44,120 nt of DNA. It comes from Enterobacteria phage mEp213. Positions within the stretch are counted from its first letter, which is position 1, and the number at the start of each line of letters is the position of its first letter. Below the pieces are notes generated by a model that searched no databases, was not told the origin of the DNA, and saw only the letters and a program-made list of their open reading frames with translations. Below are positions 2,816-21,806 of this stretch, in pieces. The DNA lies in sequence record NC_019720.1; one strand, given 5' to 3'. A program made the translations under genes and the position numbers.

Positions 2816-4311
2816 GTTTTTTAGATGATGCGATAGGCCTGTTTTCACCAGGCTGGAAAGCCTCACGCCTGCGTGCCCGCGCAGTTATTAAGGCGTATGA
2901 GGCGGTAAAGCAAACGCGTACCCACAAAGCCCAGAAGGAAAATCGTTCAGCCGATCAGCTCAGCCAGATGGGGGCGGTTTCACTGAGGCAGCAGGCGCGC
3001 TGGCTGGACAACAACCACGATCTGGTGATTGGCGTTTTCGACAAGCTGGAAGAAAGGGTGGTGGGTGCGAAGGGCATCATAGTTGAACCGCATCCGATGC
3101 TGACTAACGGGAAGATAGCTAAAAAGCTGGCCACTGACATCCGCAGAAAGTGGGGCGAATGGTCCGTAAGACCCGATGTTACAACCCAGTTTACCCGCCC
3201 CATGCTGGAGCGGCTGATGCTGCGAACGTGGCTCCGGGACGGTGAGGTATTTGCTCAGCTGGTTCGCGGTACCGGAAATGGTCTTCAGCCGGTTGCTGGC
3301 GTGCCGTTCTGGCTGGAAGCGCTGGAGCCGGACTTCGTGCCGATGAACAGCGATGCCGCCACCCAGCTCAATCAGGGCGTTTTTGTCGATAACTGGGGGC
3401 GCCCGAAAAAATATCAGGTCTATAAAAGCCTGCCAGTATCCGGGCGTCAGTTCGATACCAAAGAGATAGATGCAGAAAACATGCTGCATCTCAAATTCAC
3501 ACGACGCCTGCACCAGACCCGCGGAACGTCTCTATTGTCAGGTGTTCTGATGCGTCTGAGCGCGCTGAAAGAGTACGAGGACTCGGAGCTTACTGCTGCC
3601 AGAATTGCTGCGGCACTCGGCATGTATATCAAAAAAGGCGACGGACAGAGCTTCGATTCTGATTCAAGCAGCGATGACCGCGAGCTGATGATTCAGCCCG
3701 GTATGCTCTATGACGAACTGCAGGCCGGGGAAGAAATCGGGATGATTAAATCCGATCGCCCGAACCCTAACCTCGAATCTTTTCGTAACGGACAGCTGCG
3801 TGCCGTGTCCGCCGGCAGTCGCCTCAGCTTTTCCAGCACATCCAGAAACTACAACGGAACGTACAGTGCCCAGCGGCAGGAGCTTGTCGAGTCAACCGAC
3901 GGATATCTGATTCTTCAGGACTGGTTCATCGGTTCAGTGACCCGGCCCATGTACCGGGCCTGGCTGAAGATGGCTATTGCTGCCGGAGAAATCAAGCTGC
4001 CGAGAGGCATCGATATGGACTCGCTTTATAACGCGGTTTATTCGGGGCCCGTTATGCCGTGGATTGATCCCGTTAAAGAAGCGAATGCCTGGAAAACGCA
4101 GATCCGCGGCGGTGCTGCTACTGAATCCGACTGGATACGTGCCAGCGGTCGCAACCCGGATGATGTTAAGTCACGCCGTAAAGCGGAGGTTGACGAGAAC
4201 CGTGAACAGGGACTGGTGTTTGACACCGACCCCGCCAATGATAAAGGAGGCACCAGTGCCGAAGCCAAAGAACCGGGCGCGCCACCGTCCGAAAGCCAGC
4301 GCAAAAAGTAA
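2812..4311 (+). CDS. Portal protein
   Basis: 499 aa directly after terminase and W-like gene; ATGA start overlap; acidic C-terminus. Confidence 0.85.
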   Translation: MSFLDDAIGLFSPGWKASRLRARAVIKAYEAVKQTRTHKAQKENRSADQLSQMGAVSLRQQARWLDNNHDLVIGVFDKLEERVVGAKGIIVEPHPMLTNGKIAKKLATDIRRKWGEWSVRPDVTTQFTRPMLERLMLRTWLRDGEVFAQLVRGTGNGLQPVAGVPFWLEALEPDFVPMNSDAATQLNQGVFVDNWGRPKKYQVYKSLPVSGRQFDTKEIDAENMLHLKFTRRLHQTRGTSLLSGVLMRLSALKEYEDSELTAARIAAALGMYIKKGDGQSFDSDSSSDDRELMIQPGMLYDELQAGEEIGMIKSDRPNPNLESFRNGQLRAVSAGSRLSFSSTSRNYNGTYSAQRQELVESTDGYLILQDWFIGSVTRPMYRAWLKMAIAAGEIKLPRGIDMDSLYNAVYSGPVMPWIDPVKEANAWKTQIRGGAATESDWIRASGRNPDDVKSRRKAEVDENREQGLVFDTDPANDKGGTSAEAKEPGAPPSESQRKK

Positions 4312-4324
4312 TTCGTGGTTCCGC

Positions 4325-6271
4325 ATGCAGGCCAGCAATAACAGCGAGGCCGACATTTTTATCTATGACGAAATCGGGTACTGGGGCGTAACGGCGAAAC
4401 AGTTCGTCAATGATCTCCGGGCACTTGGGGACGTCACCCACATCAACCTTTATATCAACTCGCCAGGTGGTGATGTCTTCGACGGTATTGCTATTTATAA
4501 CGCGCTGAAGCACCACGGCGCGGCGATTACCGTGCATATCGACGGTCTCGCGGCCTCCATGGCCTCGGTGATTGCGATGGTAGGCAATCCGGTCATCATG
4601 CCTGAAAACACGATGATGATGATCCATAAGCCCTGGGGGTTTGCTGGTGGTGACGCGAGCGATATGCGCGACTATGCAGATCTTCTCGACAAGGTTGAAT
4701 CCGTTCTTATCCCGGCTTATGCGCAGAAAACCGGAAAATCCACCGAAGAAATTGCGGCAATGCTGGAGGACGAAACCTGGATGAACGGCAGCGAGTGCCT
4801 TGAACTGGGTTTTGCCGACCAGGTGACACCATCCCTTCAGGCTATGGCCTGTATTCATTCAAAACGTATTGAGGAATTTGAAAAAATGCCAAAAAGCATT
4901 CGCAACATGATCACCCCGCCGCGCAACACTACCCAGCGTGACCCGGTTATTACCCAGCCTCAGGAACCGCAGGCAAAAACAGACCCGGCACCGGATGAAA
5001 ATGTGATCCGCGCGCAGGTGTTGGCTGAGCAGAAAGCCCGTGTTAACGCTATCGGCGATCTCTTTGCCATGTTCGGCAATAAGCACATGGAACTGCAGAA
5101 TCAGTGTGTGGCCGACCCTGATTGTTCCGTCGATAAGGCGAAAGATTTGCTGCTGGCAGAACTCGGTAAAACGGCCACGCCGTCCAATAAAACCACCCAG
5201 CCGCATATTCATGCGGGCAATGGTAACTTCGTCGCGGATGGTATTCGCCAGGCACTGATGGCGCGTGCCGGGTTCGAAGGTCAGGAGCGGGATAACGTTT
5301 ATAACGGTATGACGCTGCGCGAGTATGCGCGTATGGCCCTGACTGAAAAAGGTATCGGCGTGGCCAGCTACAACCCGATGCAGATGGTTGGCCTGGCGCT
5401 GACCCACAGCACCTCTGACTTTGGCAACATTCTGCTTGATGTTGCGAACAAAGCGCTGATTCAGGGCTGGGACGAGGCGCAGGAAACCTTCGAACAGTGG
5501 ACCAAAAAAGGCCAGCTGTCGGACTTCAAAACGGCGCATCGTGTCGGCATGGGTGGTTTCCCTTCTCTGCGACAGGTTCGCGAAGGGGCTGAGTACAAGT
5601 ACATCACTACCAGTGACAAAGGCGAAACCATCGCGCTTGCCACGTATGGTGAAATCTTCTCAGTAACCCGCCAGGCGATCATCAACGACGATCTGAACCA
5701 GCTTACCGACGTACCGATGAAGATGGGGCGCGCGGCGAAAGCAACGATTGGCGATCTGGTTTACGCCATTCTGACCAAAAACCCGAAACTCTCAGACGGA
5801 AAGGCGCTGTTCCATGCCGATCACAAGAACCTGAGCTCGGGCGCAATTTCTGTGGCCAGCCTGGACGAATCGCGCAAGCTGATGCGTCTGCAGAAGGAGA
5901 GGGAGCGAACCCTGAATATCCGTCCGGCCTACATGCTGGTGCCCGTCGCCCTGGAAACTCTGGCAAATCAGACCATCAAGTCGGCCAGTGTTAAAGGTGC
6001 AGACATCAATGCCGGGATCGTTAACCCTATCCAGAACTTTGCAGAAGTCATTGCCGAACCACGCCTGGATGAAGCTGATGCGAAAGCCTGGTATCTGGCT
6101 GCCGCGAAGGGCACCGACACCATCGAGGTCGCTTATCTCAACGGCGTCGACACGCCATACATCGATCAGCAGGAAGGCTTCACCACTGATGGTATCGCCA
6201 CGAAAGTGCGTATTGATGCCGGTGTGGCGCCGCTGGACTATCGCGGCATGACCAAATCCTCTGGTCAGTAA
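4325..6271 (+). CDS. Prohead protease (ClpP/S49-like) fused to scaffold-like linker and major capsid protein
   Basis: N-terminal ClpP-like segment (INSPGGDVFDGIAIYNAL...HIDGLAASMASVIAM), Pro/Gln-rich linker, C-terminal major-capsid-like domain; the listed 764-aa ORF is trimmed to ATG 4325 after the portal stop. Confidence 0.8.
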   Translation: MQASNNSEADIFIYDEIGYWGVTAKQFVNDLRALGDVTHINLYINSPGGDVFDGIAIYNALKHHGAAITVHIDGLAASMASVIAMVGNPVIMPENTMMMIHKPWGFAGGDASDMRDYADLLDKVESVLIPAYAQKTGKSTEEIAAMLEDETWMNGSECLELGFADQVTPSLQAMACIHSKRIEEFEKMPKSIRNMITPPRNTTQRDPVITQPQEPQAKTDPAPDENVIRAQVLAEQKARVNAIGDLFAMFGNKHMELQNQCVADPDCSVDKAKDLLLAELGKTATPSNKTTQPHIHAGNGNFVADGIRQALMARAGFEGQERDNVYNGMTLREYARMALTEKGIGVASYNPMQMVGLALTHSTSDFGNILLDVANKALIQGWDEAQETFEQWTKKGQLSDFKTAHRVGMGGFPSLRQVREGAEYKYITTSDKGETIALATYGEIFSVTRQAIINDDLNQLTDVPMKMGRAAKATIGDLVYAILTKNPKLSDGKALFHADHKNLSSGAISVASLDESRKLMRLQKERERTLNIRPAYMLVPVALETLANQTIKSASVKGADINAGIVNPIQNFAEVIAEPRLDEADAKAWYLAAAKGTDTIEVAYLNGVDTPYIDQQEGFTTDGIATKVRIDAGVAPLDYRGMTKSSGQ

Positions 6272-15187: not shown

Positions 15188-15207
15188 GTGCTTCGGCACT
15201 TTTTTTA
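15188..15207 (+). terminator. Terminator-like hairpin immediately upstream of J
   Basis: GTGC-TTCG-GCAC stem-loop followed by T7 that runs into the J start codon. Confidence 0.4.
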
Positions 15208-18200
15208 TGGGTGAAAAAATGCAGCTTCTTAAACAAGAAACCATCCTGCAGGGTGCCAAAGGGGGAGGTGGCAGTTCACATACTCCTGTTGAGCAGCCTG
15301 ACGATCTGTTGTCGGTCGCAAAATTAAAAATGCTCATTGCCGTTTCTGAGGGGGAAATACAGGGCGACCTGACCGCTCAGAATATTTTTCTCAACGATAC
15401 GCCGCTGGCAAACGACAGCGGGGAATACAACTTCAGCGGCGTGAAATGGGAGTTCCGCAAGGGCACACAGGACCAGACCTATATTGCCGGGATGCCCCAG
15501 GTCGACAACGAGCTGGCCGTGGGCACAACTGTCACCACCACCGCGCCCTGGACGCGCCAGTTTACAAACCTTTCCCTGGATGCCATCCGTATCAAGCTCA
15601 GCCTTCCGGTCCAGTATCTCTATAAAGATAATGGCGATATGGTGGGCACGGTCACCGAGTATGCGATCGATTTATCAACGGACGGCGGCGCCTGGAAAAC
15701 GGTTGTAAACGGCAAGTTTGACGGAAAGACCAAGACGGAATATCAGCGTGACCACCGTATCGATCTGCCAAAATCCACGTCCGGCTGGTCTGTCAGGGTC
15801 AGGCGTATTACGGCTGATGCCAGCGGATCAAATTCGAAACTGGTTAACGCCTTCAAGGTGTTTTCGTATGCGGAAGTCATCGACAGCAAGCTTCGTTATC
15901 CTTTAACAGCGCTCCTGTATGTCGAAGTGGACAGCAGCCAATTCAACGGCAGCGCGCCGAAAGTGACCTGTAAGATAAAAGGCAAGCTGATTAAGGTTCC
16001 GGATAATTACGATCCGAAAACCCGAACCTATTCTGGTTCATGGTCCGGCGGGTTCAAAATGGCATGGTCCAATAACCCTGCCTGGATCTTTTACGATCTG
16101 GTTCTGGATGAAATTTACGGCATGGGCACGCGCGTGGATGCGTCCATGGTGGATAAGTGGGCGCTGTATTCAATCGCCCAGTACTGTGACGAAATGGTTT
16201 CCGACGGGGCCGGTGGCACCGAACCGCGTTTCACCTGCAACGTTTTCATTCAGAGCCAGGAGGACGCCTGGCAGGTACTTAACGATCTCGCCGCGGTATT
16301 TCGTGGAATAACGTTCTGGGGCAACGATCAGATTTATGTCCAGGCAGACGTCCCGCAGGACGATGTTGACTGGGTTTATAACGTCTCAAACGTTATCGAT
16401 GGGCTGTTTACTTATGCGGGCGGCTCATACAAGAATCGCTACAGCTCCTGCCTGGTGTCCTGGTCCGATCCGCAGAATCATTACAGCGATACCGTTGAGG
16501 GGGTCTACGATTCGGCGCTGGTAGAGCGTTACGACGTCCGGCAGACGTCCCTGACCGCAATCGGCTGCACCTCGCAAAGTGAAGCGCACCGGCGCGGTCG
16601 CTGGGTATTACTCTCCAATGCCAAAGACGGCACCGTATCGTTTGGCGTGGGGTTGGACGGTTATATCCCTTTGCCCGCTGAAATTATCGGTGTCGCCGAT
16701 CCTTTCCGTTCTGGTAAGGAGAACGGGGGCCGCATAAGCGCGGTCAACGGCCGCCAGATTACCCTTGATCGAGAAATAGACTACGCGGCGAAAGACCGGC
16801 TGGTGGTTAACCTTCCCGACGGAAAAGCCCAGACGCGGACAATCAGCGCGGTGAGCGCCGATAAAAAAACGGTGACGGTGGCTACGGCATTCAGTCAGGT
16901 TCCTGTGGCTGGCGCTGTCTGGGCGATAGACAGTGATAACCTCGCAATACAGTACTTCAGGGTCACCTCAATCGCGGCTAACGACGACAGCACAGGCGGT
17001 TTCACTATTACGGCCGTTCAGCACGATCCAAACAAATATCGTTACATCGATGACGGCGTTCGGGTCGAGTCTCCCCCGATCACCGTCACGCCGATAAGCG
17101 TCCTGTCTGCTCCGAAGAATATCGTGGTGACTGAGAGCGATCATGTGTCTCAGGGGCTGACTGTAGCAAGCCTGGACGTGTCATGGGATAAGGTAGAGGG
17201 CGCAATCCGGTATGTTGCCCAGTGGCGTAAGGACAACGGGGACTGGATAAACGTTCCGGTTACCAGCGCGCAGGGTTTCTCGGTTCAGGGCATTTATTCG
17301 GGCAGCTATGACGTGCGCGTACGGGCACTGAATGCGCAGGATACGTCGTCACCATGGGGATACGGTGAAACAACTTATCTCTCCGGTAAAACGGGAAAAC
17401 CGGGTACTCCGCTCAACTTCCTGGCGACCGAAGATGTGGTCTGGCATATCGACCTGACATGGAAATTTCCGGATGGCTCAGGCGACACGGCCTATACAGA
17501 GATTCAGCGCGCCACAACTGCCGACTACGCCAATCCTGAACTGCTGGTCCTGGTGCCGTACCCGGCTGCAGATTATCAGCATGGCCCCATGCCTGCCGGC
17601 GTTCGCCAGTGGTACCGCGCGCGCCTGATTGACCGTATCGGTAACGCCGGGGACTGGACCGACTGGATCATGGGCACGTCCTCGATAGATGTCAGCGAAA
17701 TAACCAATGACATTCTGGAGGATATGAAAGAGTCGGAAACGTTCAAAGACCTGATCGAGAACGCGGTGGACAGCAACGAAAAAATTGCTGGCATGGCTAA
17801 CGATATCAAACAGGCTAACGACGAACTGGAGCAGCAAGCGAAAGATATCGCCAAAAATGCCCAGGACGTAGGGAAGGTTCAGACCAGCGTTAATGAGCTT
17901 TCCAGCACGGTCGGGAATGTTTCGTCTTCACTCAGTCAGCTTGAGCAGACCGTTGCGACGGCTGATACCGCCCTGGGCCAGCGAATCGACAACATCAGCG
18001 TTTCTATGGACGGCATGACGGGCGGGGTGAAGAACTCTGCAATTGCGATAATCCAGGCCAACCTCGCTCAGGTGGCCACGCGTAAAACCCTTTCTGCATC
18101 GGTCGCCGGCAACAGCGCGAATCTGGACCGTATTGATGAGGTGATTGTCAACGACAGGGAGGCAACGGCGCGCTCGCTGCTGAGCCTGCAGACGGACGTT

Positions 18201-18887
18201 AACGGCAACAAGGCATCCATAAACAGCCTGAATCAGACGTTCTCCGACTATCAGCAGGCAACGGCGCGCTCGCTGCTGAGCCTGCAGACGGACGTTAACG
18301 GCAACAAGGCATCCATAAACAGCCTGAATCAGACGTTCTCCGACTATCAGCAGGCAACGGCCACGCAGATAAACGGCATCACGGCGACCGTGAACGGGCA
18401 TACCTCAGCCATCACCACTAATGCTCAGGCGATAGCCAACGTTAATGGCGACCTCAGCGCGATGTATAACATCAAGGTTGGCGTAACCAGTAACGGGCAG
18501 TATTACGCTGCCGGGATGGGGATTGGGGTTCAGAATACACCCTCCGGCATGCAGTCACAGGTAATATTCCTGGCCGACCGATTTGCTGTTACCACTGCTG
18601 CCGGAAACAGCGTGGCGTTACCATTTGTGATCCAGAATGGTCAGACGTTCATCAGGGCCAGCTTCATTCAGGACGGTACCATTGAGAACGCCAAAATCGG
18701 TAACTATATCCAGTCGAATAACTATGTGGCTGGCTCTGCAGGCTGGAAACTTGATAAGGGGGGCACCTGGGAAAACTGCGGCAGCGACGGTCAGGGAGCA
18801 AGAAAATCCACCAATGTCACTGACAGTATCAGGGATTCAAATGGCGTGCTCCGCGTGCAAATCGGCAAACTTACAGGGGTGTTTTGA
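15207..18887 (+). CDS. J: Tail tip/central fibre protein J (host specificity)
   Basis: 1226 aa; lambda gpJ-like through the N-terminal two-thirds (SSHTP, KWALY.I.QYCD, GGTEPR.TCN); divergent, shorter C-terminus. Confidence 0.9.
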   Translation: MGEKMQLLKQETILQGAKGGGGSSHTPVEQPDDLLSVAKLKMLIAVSEGEIQGDLTAQNIFLNDTPLANDSGEYNFSGVKWEFRKGTQDQTYIAGMPQVDNELAVGTTVTTTAPWTRQFTNLSLDAIRIKLSLPVQYLYKDNGDMVGTVTEYAIDLSTDGGAWKTVVNGKFDGKTKTEYQRDHRIDLPKSTSGWSVRVRRITADASGSNSKLVNAFKVFSYAEVIDSKLRYPLTALLYVEVDSSQFNGSAPKVTCKIKGKLIKVPDNYDPKTRTYSGSWSGGFKMAWSNNPAWIFYDLVLDEIYGMGTRVDASMVDKWALYSIAQYCDEMVSDGAGGTEPRFTCNVFIQSQEDAWQVLNDLAAVFRGITFWGNDQIYVQADVPQDDVDWVYNVSNVIDGLFTYAGGSYKNRYSSCLVSWSDPQNHYSDTVEGVYDSALVERYDVRQTSLTAIGCTSQSEAHRRGRWVLLSNAKDGTVSFGVGLDGYIPLPAEIIGVADPFRSGKENGGRISAVNGRQITLDREIDYAAKDRLVVNLPDGKAQTRTISAVSADKKTVTVATAFSQVPVAGAVWAIDSDNLAIQYFRVTSIAANDDSTGGFTITAVQHDPNKYRYIDDGVRVESPPITVTPISVLSAPKNIVVTESDHVSQGLTVASLDVSWDKVEGAIRYVAQWRKDNGDWINVPVTSAQGFSVQGIYSGSYDVRVRALNAQDTSSPWGYGETTYLSGKTGKPGTPLNFLATEDVVWHIDLTWKFPDGSGDTAYTEIQRATTADYANPELLVLVPYPAADYQHGPMPAGVRQWYRARLIDRIGNAGDWTDWIMGTSSIDVSEITNDILEDMKESETFKDLIENAVDSNEKIAGMANDIKQANDELEQQAKDIAKNAQDVGKVQTSVNELSSTVGNVSSSLSQLEQTVATADTALGQRIDNISVSMDGMTGGVKNSAIAIIQANLAQVATRKTLSASVAGNSANLDRIDEVIVNDREATARSLLSLQTDVNGNKASINSLNQTFSDYQQATARSLLSLQTDVNGNKASINSLNQTFSDYQQATATQINGITATVNGHTSAITTNAQAIANVNGDLSAMYNIKVGVTSNGQYYAAGMGIGVQNTPSGMQSQVIFLADRFAVTTAAGNSVALPFVIQNGQTFIRASFIQDGTIENAKIGNYIQSNNYVAGSAGWKLDKGGTWENCGSDGQGARKSTNVTDSIRDSNGVLRVQIGKLTGVF
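18162..18353 (+). repeat. Perfect tandem duplication, 2 x 96 bp, in frame within J
   Basis: Identical 96-nt units at 18162-18257 and 18258-18353; encodes ATARSLLSLQTDVNGNKASINSLNQTFSDYQQ twice. Confidence 0.9.
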
Positions 18888-19189
18888 TGTCATGGGGTAT
18901 ACAAACATGGGATGCGTCGGGTAAACCCAACAACTACGGTATCAAGCCAGTTTCAGTTGTTGGGCGTATACAGCTGGCTGCCGGACAAAACTCCGGCAGT
19001 TGGTCTTTCGCGATGCCCTCAGGAATGAAGGTCGGCTTTGTGCTCTCACTTGATGAAGGTGGAAACAGCGTAGGGAGGCGCATTGTCGCGTCAGGGAACA
19101 CAATAACCGTAACCGCTGCCTCTTCTGTAGGCCTAGGTAATTACCCGGCCTCTAAGTGTGAGGTGATCGTTTTCATGGAGAAAGTATAG
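18884..19189 (+). CDS. Hypothetical protein, single copy of a domain repeated in the next ORF
   Basis: 101 aa; start overlaps J stop (TGATG); shares W-G-x3-W-D-A-S-G-K motif with the downstream ORF. Confidence 0.5.
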   Translation: MMSWGIQTWDASGKPNNYGIKPVSVVGRIQLAAGQNSGSWSFAMPSGMKVGFVLSLDEGGNSVGRRIVASGNTITVTAASSVGLGNYPASKCEVIVFMEKV

Positions 19190-19863
19190 TGTCTGACTTT
19201 GGCGCAATGATATTAATGGAGAACGGCAATCCCTTTGTTACACCACAATCAACGCCTTTCTGCCTCTACGGAAAATACTCCTTCAATTCCTCAGCTAATG
19301 GCAGCTCTCAGCAGGTGGCGCAATATCTTTCGGTTCCTGACGATTATCCGGCAATGGTCTTCATAAAAACGACTAATACTGCGCAGCCGACCCCGGTCAT
19401 TTCATATCGGATTGGAGGAAATGTCTATATTAGTGGCGTAAATCCCTATAACCAGGGCTTTACGCTGACAGCATATGTATTTGCAATTTTTCCGCAAACA
19501 CTTCCCGCGTGGGGATTTGCTATCTGGGATGCCTCCGGGAAGCTTGTTCTGACGAACGAATCAAGGGTGCTTTCTGATCTGCAAACAGTGGGCACGCCAG
19601 GTGCAAGCGGCGGGATTAATATTGACCAGACGCTGAGCGGGTCATGGGCTGTTGCGCCTGCTCAGTTGGGTCAGACCATCATTGTGAATAATTCAACCAA
19701 GCCTCCGACTATCTACACGATAAATGCTTATTCTTCATGCAGGTTTGACGGGGCCAATACGAGGATAAACGCAGGGGGGACCTCCACTGGGGCAGGTTCA
19801 CCTGGAGGGGGAACGAATACTGGCATTTCATTAACCGCCATAAATACAGCGGCCTATGATTGA
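19189..19863 (+). CDS. Hypothetical protein with two tandem copies of the same domain
   Basis: 224 aa; GTG start overlaps upstream stop, GGAGAAAG RBS; second half repeats the WGFAIWDASGK motif; Gly/Thr/Ser-rich tail. Confidence 0.5.
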   Translation: MSDFGAMILMENGNPFVTPQSTPFCLYGKYSFNSSANGSSQQVAQYLSVPDDYPAMVFIKTTNTAQPTPVISYRIGGNVYISGVNPYNQGFTLTAYVFAIFPQTLPAWGFAIWDASGKLVLTNESRVLSDLQTVGTPGASGGINIDQTLSGSWAVAPAQLGQTIIVNNSTKPPTIYTINAYSSCRFDGANTRINAGGTSTGAGSPGGGTNTGISLTAINTAAYD

Positions 19864-19974: not shown

Positions 19975-20208
19975 ATGAGAAAACTGATTATCTGCATGGC
20001 AGGCGCTGTCATGCTTACAGGATGCGCTGGCGTAATTGAGAAACAGGAACCAGTTTGCAGCGGCACTGCAATCGTTGGCGGTCAGGAAACTACGGTTCAG
20101 ATTTACGGTGTGCGTAAACAAAACAACCAGACGCAGTACCGGGCTGGATATCCTTTCAGCTGGCGCTGGGTAAGTGCGAATACATTTACCGAAACAACCT
20201 GCAAATAA
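19975..20208 (+). CDS. Small lipoprotein moron (possible Cor-like superinfection exclusion protein)
   Basis: 77 aa; signal peptide with LTGC lipobox; standalone between tail genes with its own downstream terminator; Cor assignment is positional only. Confidence 0.5.
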   Translation: MRKLIICMAGAVMLTGCAGVIEKQEPVCSGTAIVGGQETTVQIYGVRKQNNQTQYRAGYPFSWRWVSANTFTETTCK

Positions 20209-20229
20209 CCCACTACGCTTAAACATAAA

Positions 20230-20252
20230 CCTCGCTCCGGCGGGGTTTTTTT
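20230..20252 (+). terminator. Intrinsic terminator after lipoprotein gene
   Basis: CCTCGC-TCCG-GCGGGG hairpin followed by T7. Confidence 0.6.
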
Positions 20253-20268
20253 ATTGCCTGGAGAAAAT

Positions 20269-21201
20269 ATGCTTTATAACACCGGCACCATCGCCATTAA
20301 TGGAAATACCGCCACCGGGACGGGTACAAACTGGACGGAACCGGCCAGCCAGGTCCGCGCTGGCCAGACGATTATCGTGATGTCTAACCCGGTGCAGCTG
20401 TTTCAGATTTCATCCGTGAACAGCGCCACGTCAATGACGGTTACGCCTGCTGCATCACCGGCGCTGAGCGGCCAGAAGTACGGCATTCTGGTATCAGACA
20501 ATATCTCGGTTGATGGGCTGGCGCTGGCCATGTCGCAGCTTATCAAGGAGTATGACGAGAATATTGGTGCGTGGGAGACGTTCGCCACAACCTCAGCCAA
20601 CCAGAACATTACCGTTACGATCAATGGCACCAGTTTATCAATCCCGGCTCTTGGGAAATTACTGCAGAAGGGGAGCAACGGAGCTTTGCCGGTTAATCAA
20701 GGTGGTACCGGCGCAACGAATGCCGCAGGCGCTCGCACAAACCTTGGTTTGGGAGAAGGTTCTCCAGCTATTGGCGTTCCGTTCTTCTGGCCGTCCGCTG
20801 CAATGCCAAATACTGTAATCGACAGCTGGTCCAGTATGGTGTTTTTGAAGTTCAACGGCGCGAAATTCTCTGCCACTGATTATCCTGTGCTGGCGAAAGT
20901 GTTTCCTTCGCTGGTATTACCTGAAGCCCGCGGTGATTTCATTCGTGTCTGGGATGACGGGCGAGGTGCAGATGGTGGTCGCGAATTATTAAGCTGGCAG
21001 GAAGCTACAAACTTTTCTCAGTTTGCCGGGAATATAGGCGTAGGTGCTGGACACGCAATTAACTTTCATGATGGCATCGTCGGAAATCAGCCAGGATTTT
21101 CACGATTTAATTTCACCAGTAACCCTGCGGGTGGTGGTGTGAATTTTGTTGCTGTCAGACCGCGAAATATTGCATTCAACTTTCTTGTAAGGGCTAAATA
21201 A
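20269..21201 (+). CDS. stf: Side tail fibre protein with C-terminal tail-collar-like domain
   Basis: N-terminal fibre repeats (GTIAINGNTATGTGT), conserved NQGGTGATNAAGARTNLGLG motif, collar-like C-terminus. Confidence 0.8.
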   Translation: MLYNTGTIAINGNTATGTGTNWTEPASQVRAGQTIIVMSNPVQLFQISSVNSATSMTVTPAASPALSGQKYGILVSDNISVDGLALAMSQLIKEYDENIGAWETFATTSANQNITVTINGTSLSIPALGKLLQKGSNGALPVNQGGTGATNAAGARTNLGLGEGSPAIGVPFFWPSAAMPNTVIDSWSSMVFLKFNGAKFSATDYPVLAKVFPSLVLPEARGDFIRVWDDGRGADGGRELLSWQEATNFSQFAGNIGVGAGHAINFHDGIVGNQPGFSRFNFTSNPAGGGVNFVAVRPRNIAFNFLVRAK

Positions 21202-21806
21202 TGAAACCTGTTTTCGATGTAAACGGACTGGCAACAGAACCGGGTGAAATCCGCTGTTATTACTACGACGCTGTGACTTCTGAATATATGGGATGGTCTG
21301 ACGAGTTTATTAACATCGGTGTCAGTATGCCCGGATGCTCTACGGCGATAGAACCAGGGGCCGAAGCAGGAGGGAAGGTATTTATTTTTTCTGGATCTGA
21401 GTGGGTGCTTAAAGAAGACCATCGTGGAGAAACAGCATACACCACCAGTAACGGGAAGCCGGTGACTATCGAATATATTGGACCGTTGCGTGAAGGCTTT
21501 ACTTTTGAAGCACCAACTACAAAGTTTGATAAATGGGATGGTAATAAATGGGTTGCCGATCCAGAAGCTCAGCGCGCATATGATATTTCTGTGGCGGCAA
21601 CAAAACTACAGGCGCTGATTAGCCAGGCCAATGACTTTATGAATGGTAAGCAATGGCCTGGTAAAGCAGCAATGGGTCGCCTGAAGGACGCAGAAAAAGA
21701 ACAATATAATGCCTGGCTTGATTATCTGGATGCGCTGGAGGGCGTTGATACCGCCAGCGCACCGGATATTGAATGGCCTACGCCTCCGGAAGTTCAGGCC
21801 AGATGA
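21201..21806 (+). CDS. tfa: Tail fibre assembly chaperone
   Basis: 201 aa; Tfa-like N-terminus and C-terminal DYLDALEGVDTASAPDIEWPTPP motif; ATG overlaps stf stop. Confidence 0.85.
   Translation: MKPVFDVNGLATEPGEIRCYYYDAVTSEYMGWSDEFINIGVSMPGCSTAIEPGAEAGGKVFIFSGSEWVLKEDHRGETAYTTSNGKPVTIEYIGPLREGFTFEAPTTKFDKWDGNKWVADPEAQRAYDISVAATKLQALISQANDFMNGKQWPGKAAMGRLKDAEKEQYNAWLDYLDALEGVDTASAPDIEWPTPPEVQAR

Follow-up and report, generated by a model that had tools for sequence, protein, structure and literature searches.

Two genes downstream of J in phage mEp213 probably encode a separate FhuA-type receptor-binding module

FhuA (TonA) is a classic phage receptor, and its recognition by T1, phi80, HK022 and their relatives was never settled at the protein level. 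The same question is raised by Enterobacteria phage mEp213 (sequence record NC_019720.1; the whole stretch of 44,120 nucleotides is called the window here), in which two small open reading frames, ORF1 and ORF2, stand between the tail tip gene J and the superinfection-exclusion gene cor. What do these two genes encode? Our analysis suggests that they probably constitute a FhuA-type receptor-binding module encoded apart from J, in which ORF2 binds FhuA and ORF1 serves as an adaptor or collar. On our side this reading draws on gene structure, family, synteny, the lack of membrane features, fold similarity and a repeated arm; FhuA dependence and the mechanism of Cor are taken from the literature. 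The segment 18600-20300 was 100% identical to the mEp213 and mEp043 records, and 83% identical in DNA to phi80.

A gene pair that stays with J

The genes and signals on which the argument rests are as follows (window coordinates).

15207..18887, plus strand: J, tail tip/central fibre protein of 1226 amino acids; GenBank name 'tail tip host specificity protein J'
18408..18884, plus strand: C-terminal tip region of J (PF09327 and the last 21 amino acids), the presumed docking site of ORF1/ORF2
18875..18879, plus strand: Shine-Dalgarno-like AGGGG for ORF1, read from the sequence, within the 3' end of J, with a 7-nucleotide spacer to ATG 18887
18887..19189, plus strand: ORF1, 100 amino acids, 10.4 kDa, isoelectric point 9.4; PHROG 557; homologue of phi80/N15 gp22 and T1 ST32
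19177..19180, plus strand: Shine-Dalgarno GGAG for ORF2, likewise a reading of the sequence, with an 8-nucleotide spacer to GTG 19189
19189..19863, plus strand: ORF2, 224 amino acids, 23.4 kDa, isoelectric point 4.85; PHROG 425; homologue of phi80/N15 gp23 and T1 ST31; two-domain all-beta protein

The TGA of J (18885-18887) and the ATG of ORF1 (18887-18889) overlap by one base (TGATG), and the TAG of ORF1 (19187-19189) shares one base with the GTG of ORF2 (19189-19191). A mechanical list of open reading frames begins ORF1 at TTG 18884, which gives 101 amino acids. Because the homologues all open with M-x-[WYF]-G and GenBank has 100 amino acids, ATG 18887 was taken as the true start. With these overlaps and a ribosome-binding site before each gene, both reading frames are real, and the initial annotation was right that they are translationally coupled to J.

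Both proteins could be placed in families. ORF1 matched PHROG 557 (E 1e-35, residues 1-99 of 100; label 'outer membrane protein') and ORF2 matched PHROG 425 (E 5e-78, residues 1-224 of 224; label 'membrane associated protein, moron'), and the phi80 record FN582354 annotates the matching genes as gp22 and gp23. The earlier statement that no family could be assigned therefore falls, since the two are PHROG 557/425, gp22/gp23 of phi80 and N15, and ST32/ST31 of T1. Pfam and NCBIfam gave no family above threshold for either protein. Sequence searches of the PDB with single sequences and with profiles A1 and A2 returned chance-level matches only (a TetR regulator at E 0.023, CBM77, and the Sf6 tailspike at E ~0.2), and PADLOC held no model that matched ORF1, ORF2 or Cor.

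When 50,697 phage records were searched with tblastn, ORF1 was found in 344 and ORF2 in 351, in the same groups and in nearly the same set of records: lambdoid phages of the mEp/HK/phi80 kind, Dhillonvirus, Drexlerviridae (T1 and more than 100 Klebsiella Weberviruses), and phages of Aeromonas, Erwinia, Pantoea and Serratia. Run exhaustively as a hidden Markov model (HMM) over 1.84 billion cluster representatives, the ORF2 profile yielded only 124 clusters, mostly of ~220 amino acids and otherwise of shorter fragments; judged by this search, the ORF2 family is small and compact. The ~100-amino-acid matches that we read from it were out-of-frame fragments of the ORF2 family; none was ORF1-like, and none formed a bridge between the two families.

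The order of the genes was strictly kept. We opened ten distant loci, from T1, Klebsiella Webervirus, Aeromonas, Erwinia, Pantoea, Salmonella, Enterobacter and Serratia phages, and Motto, and in all of them J was followed by a ~100-amino-acid gene and then by a ~220-amino-acid gene, co-oriented and nearly abutting. cor was missing from five of the ten, with the pair still beside J, and in T1 and Motto cor lay on the opposite strand while the pair stayed co-oriented with J. That cor can be absent or inverted without the pair leaving J argues for a role of the pair in the tail rather than in exclusion.

Over 100 Klebsiella phages, like those of Pantoea, Enterobacter and Serratia, have the pair but no cor; an FhuA orthologue or another protein may serve as their terminal receptor. 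In Aeromonas phage pAEv1818 an unannotated reading frame directly after the ORF1/ORF2 homologues, at 3273-3503 of the locus inspected, was 61% identical to Cor of mEp213, which is unexpectedly close for so distant a host. MG065636 (Campylobacter phage A16a, one of eight such records) and ON843697 (Pseudomonas phage Motto, which also has cor) are T1-like Drexlerviridae genomes whose ORF1 and ORF2 are 53-60% identical to those of E. coli phages; the hosts deposited with them, Campylobacter jejuni and Pseudomonas aeruginosa, may reflect contaminating coliphages.

The link to FhuA comes from published work, in which the locus downstream of gpJ has already been discussed as a FhuA-type receptor-binding locus (PMC8594841, PMC12309495, bioRxiv 10.64898/2026.04.02.716166). 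As related in PMC13164509, Wietzorrek et al. (2006) noticed that T1, HK022, N15, ES18 and phi80, all of them FhuA users, carry this cassette behind their tail fibre genes; by the same account, the cassette is absent from close relatives with other receptors. In the BASEL collection, all ten phages with cor and both proteins use FhuA (PMC13164509). Maffei et al. suggested that receptor-binding proteins and the exclusion factors paired with them are both products of the locus downstream of gpJ, in its various alleles, and found that the locus correlates with the receptor (PMC8594841); a 2026 preprint on 101 siphoviruses confirmed this correlation and modelled the FhuA-type protein on FhuA (bioRxiv 10.64898/2026.04.02.716166). 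FhuA dependence was demonstrated by experiment for JLBYU37, JLBYU60, JLBYU41 and Teewinot (PMC10373560), and we found the ORF1/ORF2 pair in all four. mEp213 itself is on a review's list of FhuA-dependent phages (PMC9311878). Finally, Matusiak et al. used AlphaFold-Multimer on the JLBYU60 homologues and placed the 23-kDa protein both on the tip of the J trimer and on FhuA (PMC12309495).

The Pfam domains of J were FNIII-A_GpJ (1e-40), Phage-tail_3 and Phage_Tail_Tip PF09327 (6e-49, residues 1068-1205); it ends in the last of these and has no lambda-type C-terminal receptor-binding domain. The last 70 amino acids were 38-68% identical to those of T1 and of the Klebsiella, Aeromonas, Erwinia, Pantoea and Serratia phages that carry the pair. 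In these alignments they are kept wherever the pair occurs, as would be expected of the presumed docking platform. In the coiled-coil part of J (18160-18361, residues ~985-1052) we also found a perfect 96-bp tandem duplication (2.1 copies, 100% match) that doubles a 32-residue unit, QATARSLLSLQTDVNGNKASINSLNQTFSDYQ; this looks like a recent in-frame change in the length of the central fibre shaft.

Predicted folds and the repeated arm

Neither ORF1 nor ORF2 has a signal peptide, a lipobox or a membrane segment, and their maximum 19-residue Kyte-Doolittle average was 1.15, compared with 2.02 for Cor. Because these features are missing from both proteins, the 'membrane' labels in PHROG lack sequence support. 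AlphaFold2 predicted ORF1 (family alignment) as a six-strand beta-sandwich at residues 21-100, with a predicted local distance difference test score (pLDDT) of about 90, preceded by a 20-residue arm of low confidence (overall pLDDT 82.9). ORF2 was predicted as a two-domain beta protein (pLDDT 90.8, predicted template modelling score 0.86; domains ~25-99 and ~111-219) with a less confident arm at residues 1-22.

The predicted fold of ORF2 matched the receptor-binding protein of phage Oekolampad (PDB 9rpt chain C). That protein is encoded beside J and paired with an exclusion lipoprotein, and cryo-electron microscopy (cryo-EM) of its complex with LptDE showed a monomer that plugs the extracellular face of the receptor (PMC12685063). 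Profile-profile comparison of ORF2 with the Oekolampad family gave a weak (E 0.0018, probability 15%) and collinear match, from ORF2 16-218 to Oekolampad 124-317, best across the inter-domain hinge. ORF2 did not match PHROG 1265 and is thus not a member of the LptD-type family at the level of sequence. Taken together with the coupling to J and the strict synteny in distant phages, the fold match to a validated, J-associated receptor-binding protein bears out the proposal that the pair are tail-tip accessory or host-range proteins made with J; a 'receptor-modulating' function, also proposed, is less likely than receptor binding.

For ORF1, a Foldseek search of the PDB gave nothing significant, and lambda gpJ was outside the top 50; a search of BFVD gave weak matches to phage proteins of ~95-128 amino acids and no clear ORF2-like match. 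Some likeness was found to the C-terminal beta-sandwich of the Sf6 tailspike: PF21519 scored 16.5 bits against a cutoff of 27 (E 0.0085, below the Pfam gathering threshold), Foldseek gave a probability of about 0.6 with template modelling scores of 0.36-0.38 and 28-31% identity, and phmmer also returned it weakly. We regard this as a weak lead only.

The initial annotation had described three copies of one ~100-residue domain that share a motif. Residues 2-13 of ORF1 (SWGIQTWDASGK) and residues 107-118 of ORF2 (AWGFAIWDASGK) were identical at 8 of 12 positions (BLASTP E 6e-4). The N-terminus of ORF2 (DFGAMILMENGN) carries a degenerate copy in mEp213, BLASTP found no match between the two halves of ORF2, and hhalign with close homologues only recovered just the same 12-residue motif. 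Later profiles included distant pairs from ten phages and remote relatives of ORF2. All three arms of the distant family members conform to [WYF]-G-x4-D-x2-G, and arm-only profile comparisons gave E values of 7e-6, 1.3e-8 and 7.8e-8 over arms of 17-22 amino acids. The motif thus does occur three times, in ORF1, at residues 107-118 of ORF2 and, more clearly in distant relatives than in mEp213, at the N-terminus of ORF2.

18887..18946, plus strand: ORF1 arm (residues 1-20), W-G-x4-D-x2-G-K-P-N-N-Y-G; pLDDT 47-54 in the monomer model; homologous by profile to both ORF2 arms
19189..19500, plus strand: ORF2 N-module, with the arm at residues 1-22 and a six-strand beta-sandwich at 23-104; the most variable part of the pair
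19501..19860, plus strand: ORF2 C-module, with the arm/hinge at residues 105-126 (PAWGFAIWDASGKLVLTNESRV; E 1e-8 to 8e-8 against the other arms) and a larger beta-domain at 127-224

The likeness extends past the arm for one pair of modules. With diverse profiles, hhalign of whole segments aligned ORF1 with the N-module of ORF2 (E 9e-6, 93 columns), ORF1 with the C-module (1.4e-6) and the N-module with the C-module (1.2e-6); none of 100 column shuffles attained the observed score for any pair, and reversed profiles gave E ~0.15-0.19. After removal of the arms, ORF1 and the N-module still aligned, 1-79 to 1-79 in register (E 1.3e-3), and six predicted strands lay at corresponding positions in the two models, in agreement with the core alignment. 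The core of the C-module, treated in the same way, had no detectable similarity to ORF1 or to the N-module (E 0.09-0.35). PHROG 2427 weakly matched both ORF1 1-82 and ORF2 109-175. The claim of three domain copies therefore stands for the arm and for the in-register cores of ORF1 and the N-module, whose sandwiches are likely paralogous, but finds no detectable support in the core of the C-module. Identity to distant homologues was 23-51% for the N-module and 29-63% for the C-half of ORF2, and the arm/hinge PAWGFAIWDASGKLVLTNESRV was the most conserved stretch of the family (alignment A1).

The models also suggest what the arm may do. The hinge arm within ORF2 packed intramolecularly with a pLDDT of 83-88, and the N-terminal arms of ORF1 and ORF2 were poorly predicted. 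The arm may mediate docking between modules, being packed confidently where the contact is intramolecular and poorly predicted where a partner would be missing. The final 21 residues of J (18822-18884, IRDSNGVLRVQIGKLTGVF) are hairpin-like, with the consensus ISVRDxNGVLRVQIGRITGVW, and resemble the arm motif of ORF1 and ORF2. Arm profiles compared with the C-terminus of J in hhalign gave a single weak match, to the C-module arm (E 0.0018). It is possible that J ends in a fourth such docking element, or that the likeness is due to chance.

A more speculative extension, for which we see some chance, is that ORF1 and ORF2 are a split form of the single-chain receptor-binding proteins found beside J in phages with other receptors. 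The combined length of the pair is 100 + 224 = 324 amino acids, compared with 321 for the Oekolampad protein. All such proteins would then consist of three modules, each an arm plus a beta-sandwich, with the arm hairpin docking each module onto the one before it by strand addition, so that here J, ORF1 and ORF2 form a head-to-tail chain; a related hairpin (ISVRDxNGVLRVQIG) ends J. The ORF1 profile had no similarity to the first 96 amino acids of the Oekolampad protein (E 0.6), and for this reason the idea is not established. If it held, the FhuA-type and LptD-type families would be one superfamily with a common assembly rule, and the sites at which modules could be swapped for retargeting would be predictable; a 2026 preprint describes the receptor-specific families as unrelated (bioRxiv 10.64898/2026.04.02.716166).

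A proposed route to FhuA and the competing explanations

On the reading of a receptor-binding module encoded apart from J, translation of ORF1 and ORF2 would keep pace with that of J in the late tail operon, and non-covalent contacts would fix both proteins to the distal end of the J trimer. The acidic, 23-kDa ORF2 would probably be the actual receptor-binding protein, likely sitting as a monomer on the extracellular face of the FhuA barrel, and the basic, 10-kDa ORF1, a single beta-sandwich, would probably be the adaptor or collar between the J tip and ORF2. The 17-22-residue arm of each module ([WYF]-G-x4-D-x2-G, a predicted hairpin) might dock onto the preceding module. After lysogeny or infection, Cor would act on FhuA and block its interaction with the tip, which would result in superinfection exclusion. 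Presence in the virion, stoichiometry, the choice of the protein that contacts FhuA, and arm docking are inferences.

Several points weigh against this reading. At 9% identity, ORF2 and the Oekolampad protein match in fold over 149 of the 224 residues of ORF2; this match depends on a predicted model, and an HMM search of the PDB with the ORF2 profile A1 found nothing. The function of every family member has so far been inferred, the cryo-EM structure of T1 left the distal end of J unresolved (PMC11945409), and a 2026 paper takes both proteins as superinfection-exclusion accessories (PMC13164509). Across distant phages ORF2 was not consistently more divergent than ORF1, and for this reason evolutionary rates do not mark ORF2 as the receptor contact. 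Klebsiella, Aeromonas, Pantoea and Serratia phages have the pair without a known FhuA link, and FhuA specificity may thus be confined to the E. coli branch.

Of the other explanations, the one that survives best, though we consider it unlikely, is that the pair, or one of the two, helps to assemble the J tip or the tail fibres as a chaperone, comparable to lambda Tfa and the tail assembly chaperones, and is absent from the mature virion, with the C-terminus of J binding FhuA. Both genes are short, coupled in translation to a fibre gene and placed like fibre chaperones; Matusiak et al. raise a possible structural or chaperone-like role (PMC12309495); k-mers in the C-terminal tip of J also predict the receptor (bioRxiv 10.64898/2026.04.02.716166); and the strong conservation of ORF1 in close relatives (mean column identity of 79%) would suit a protein that partners a conserved J tip. 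However, the fold of ORF2 is like that of a mature receptor-binding protein and unlike that of a chaperone, and the conservation of the last 70 residues of J at 38-68% across very different hosts is unexpected for a surface that contacts the receptor. In addition, Littlefixvirus virions contain a 21-kDa band that fits the ORF2 homologue, assigned by size only (PMC12309495), and the phage already has a dedicated Tfa chaperone, encoded after the side fibre gene.

Next comes the view that the pair are superinfection-exclusion accessories, which would act with Cor on FhuA in the envelope of the infected or lysogenic cell, outside the virion. We find this quite improbable. It would agree with the PHROG annotations, with the position of the genes next to cor and their linkage to FhuA-using phages (PMC13164509), and with the slot in which lambda carries lom. 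However, the proteins lack a signal peptide, lipobox or hydrophobic segment that could take them to the envelope, five of the ten distant loci have the pair but no cor, the pair remains coupled and co-oriented with J where cor is inverted, the fold of ORF2 is that of a virion receptor-binding protein, and PADLOC was negative. The analogous PHROG label is, moreover, wrong for the validated Oekolampad protein. The latter, bas18_0025 (4655-5620 of the Oekolampad locus inspected, minus strand), a cryo-EM-validated LptD binder, belongs to PHROG 1265 with the label 'moron, auxiliary metabolic gene and host takeover / membrane protein'. Because a validated receptor-binding protein bears so similar a label, that of the ORF2 family carries no weight; such labels, which propagate into RefSeq phage records, appear wrong. 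The comparisons with lom and with exclusion genes made in the initial annotation could likewise not be upheld: there is no Pfam Ail_Lom match, no hydrophobic N-terminus and no lipoprotein feature, the models are soluble beta-sandwiches, and the exclusion gene is the next one, cor.

19975..20208, plus strand: cor, 77 amino acids, lipobox LTGC; FhuA-directed superinfection-exclusion lipoprotein and putative cognate partner of the receptor-binding module; NCBIfam lamb_exclu_cor 9e-42 over residues 1-76, PHROG 1119 7e-37

Cor does have a lipoprotein signal peptide with the lipobox cysteine (MRKLIICMAGAVMLTGC). GenBank PV340538 starts cor at window position 20011 (MLTGC..., 65 amino acids). The 77-amino-acid version (start 19975, MRKLIICMAGAVMLTGC) includes a proper lipoprotein signal peptide and is covered by the NCBIfam Cor model from its first residue onwards, and the start in PV340538 is probably too short.

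Least likely of all is a reversal or sharing of roles, in which a trimer of the small, Ig-like ORF1 binds FhuA and ORF2 is a cap or trigger protein: Matusiak et al. see a resemblance between the small protein and the C-terminal receptor-binding domain of lambda gpJ (PMC12309495) and ORF1 has its weak likeness to the Sf6 tailspike (PF21519, Foldseek), but Foldseek found nothing significant for ORF1 in the PDB, with gpJ not among the top 50 matches, the published multimer models are least confident for the small protein on FhuA (PMC12309495), and ORF1 is the more conserved of the two among E. coli phages (92% vs 74% in HK022, 69% vs 58.5% in JLBYU60).

Downstream of cor lie a terminator-like hairpin and a separate lateral-fibre module, after which the integrase follows on the opposite strand.

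20227..20248, plus strand: terminator-like hairpin and T-run 3' of cor, with a 9-bp stem (5 GC pairs) followed by TTTTTATT
20254..21806, plus strand: side tail fibre (315 amino acids) and tail fibre assembly protein (201 amino acids); PHROG tail fibre families, Pfam Caudo_TAP 7e-28

The side tail fibre (20254-21201) is short at 315 amino acids, and its PHROG matches break at about residue 170, between an N-terminal part common to long fibres and a C-terminal collar/knob part. This suggests that the fibre is recombinant or truncated.

Comparison with known systems

The module is already recognised in the literature, and the mEp213 pair is a further member of it. What may be new is the fold link between the FhuA-type and LptD-type proteins, the case against a membrane or exclusion role, and the three-fold arm motif; the authors of KanT1 reported no structural hits (PMC13164509). 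These additions are modest refinements and leave the general picture unchanged. Should ORF2 prove to be the receptor-binding protein, with ORF1 as the adaptor, the two genes would be key to FhuA recognition, to exclusion by Cor and to the retargeting of small siphophages and lambdoid phages. The occurrence of the pair in more than 100 Klebsiella phages also bears on candidates for Klebsiella phage therapy.

The closest counterparts lie in phages of the same kind. phi80 shares the order J, small gene, 224-amino-acid gene and cor, with 87% identity in ORF2. In HK022, ORF1 is 92% and ORF2 74% identical, and ORF2 of the HK022 group has 212 amino acids; in JLBYU60 the values are 69% and 58.5%. T1 carries its homologues ST32 and ST31 between J and cor, at 56% (ORF1, tblastn) and 57% (ORF2, global alignment) identity. 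Judged by sequence and gene order, the pairs of phi80, N15, T1 and HK022 are direct orthologues, and nothing essential differs.

Oekolampad (Bas18, Dhillonvirus) offers a more distant parallel. Its LptD-type protein bas18_0025 (PDB 9rpt chain C; PHROG 1265), with which Rtp44 is grouped, has a fold in common with ORF2. In contrast to the mEp213 pair, it is a single chain of 321 amino acids on the opposite strand, without a separate partner of ~100 amino acids, and its target is LptD and not FhuA. Lambda carries lom in the same slot after J, but lom has a signal peptide and forms an outer-membrane beta-barrel, neither of which applies to ORF1 or ORF2. In T5, the separately encoded, monomeric receptor-binding protein pb5 sits on the tip of the straight fibre and binds FhuA, and the same logic is proposed here for ORF2; the small periplasmic lipoprotein Llp of T5 blocks the binding of pb5 to FhuA and may be compared with Cor (PMC9586334). 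In lambda the receptor-binding domain is part of gpJ, whereas in mEp213 it would be encoded separately; in both phages it would be placed at the distal end of J.

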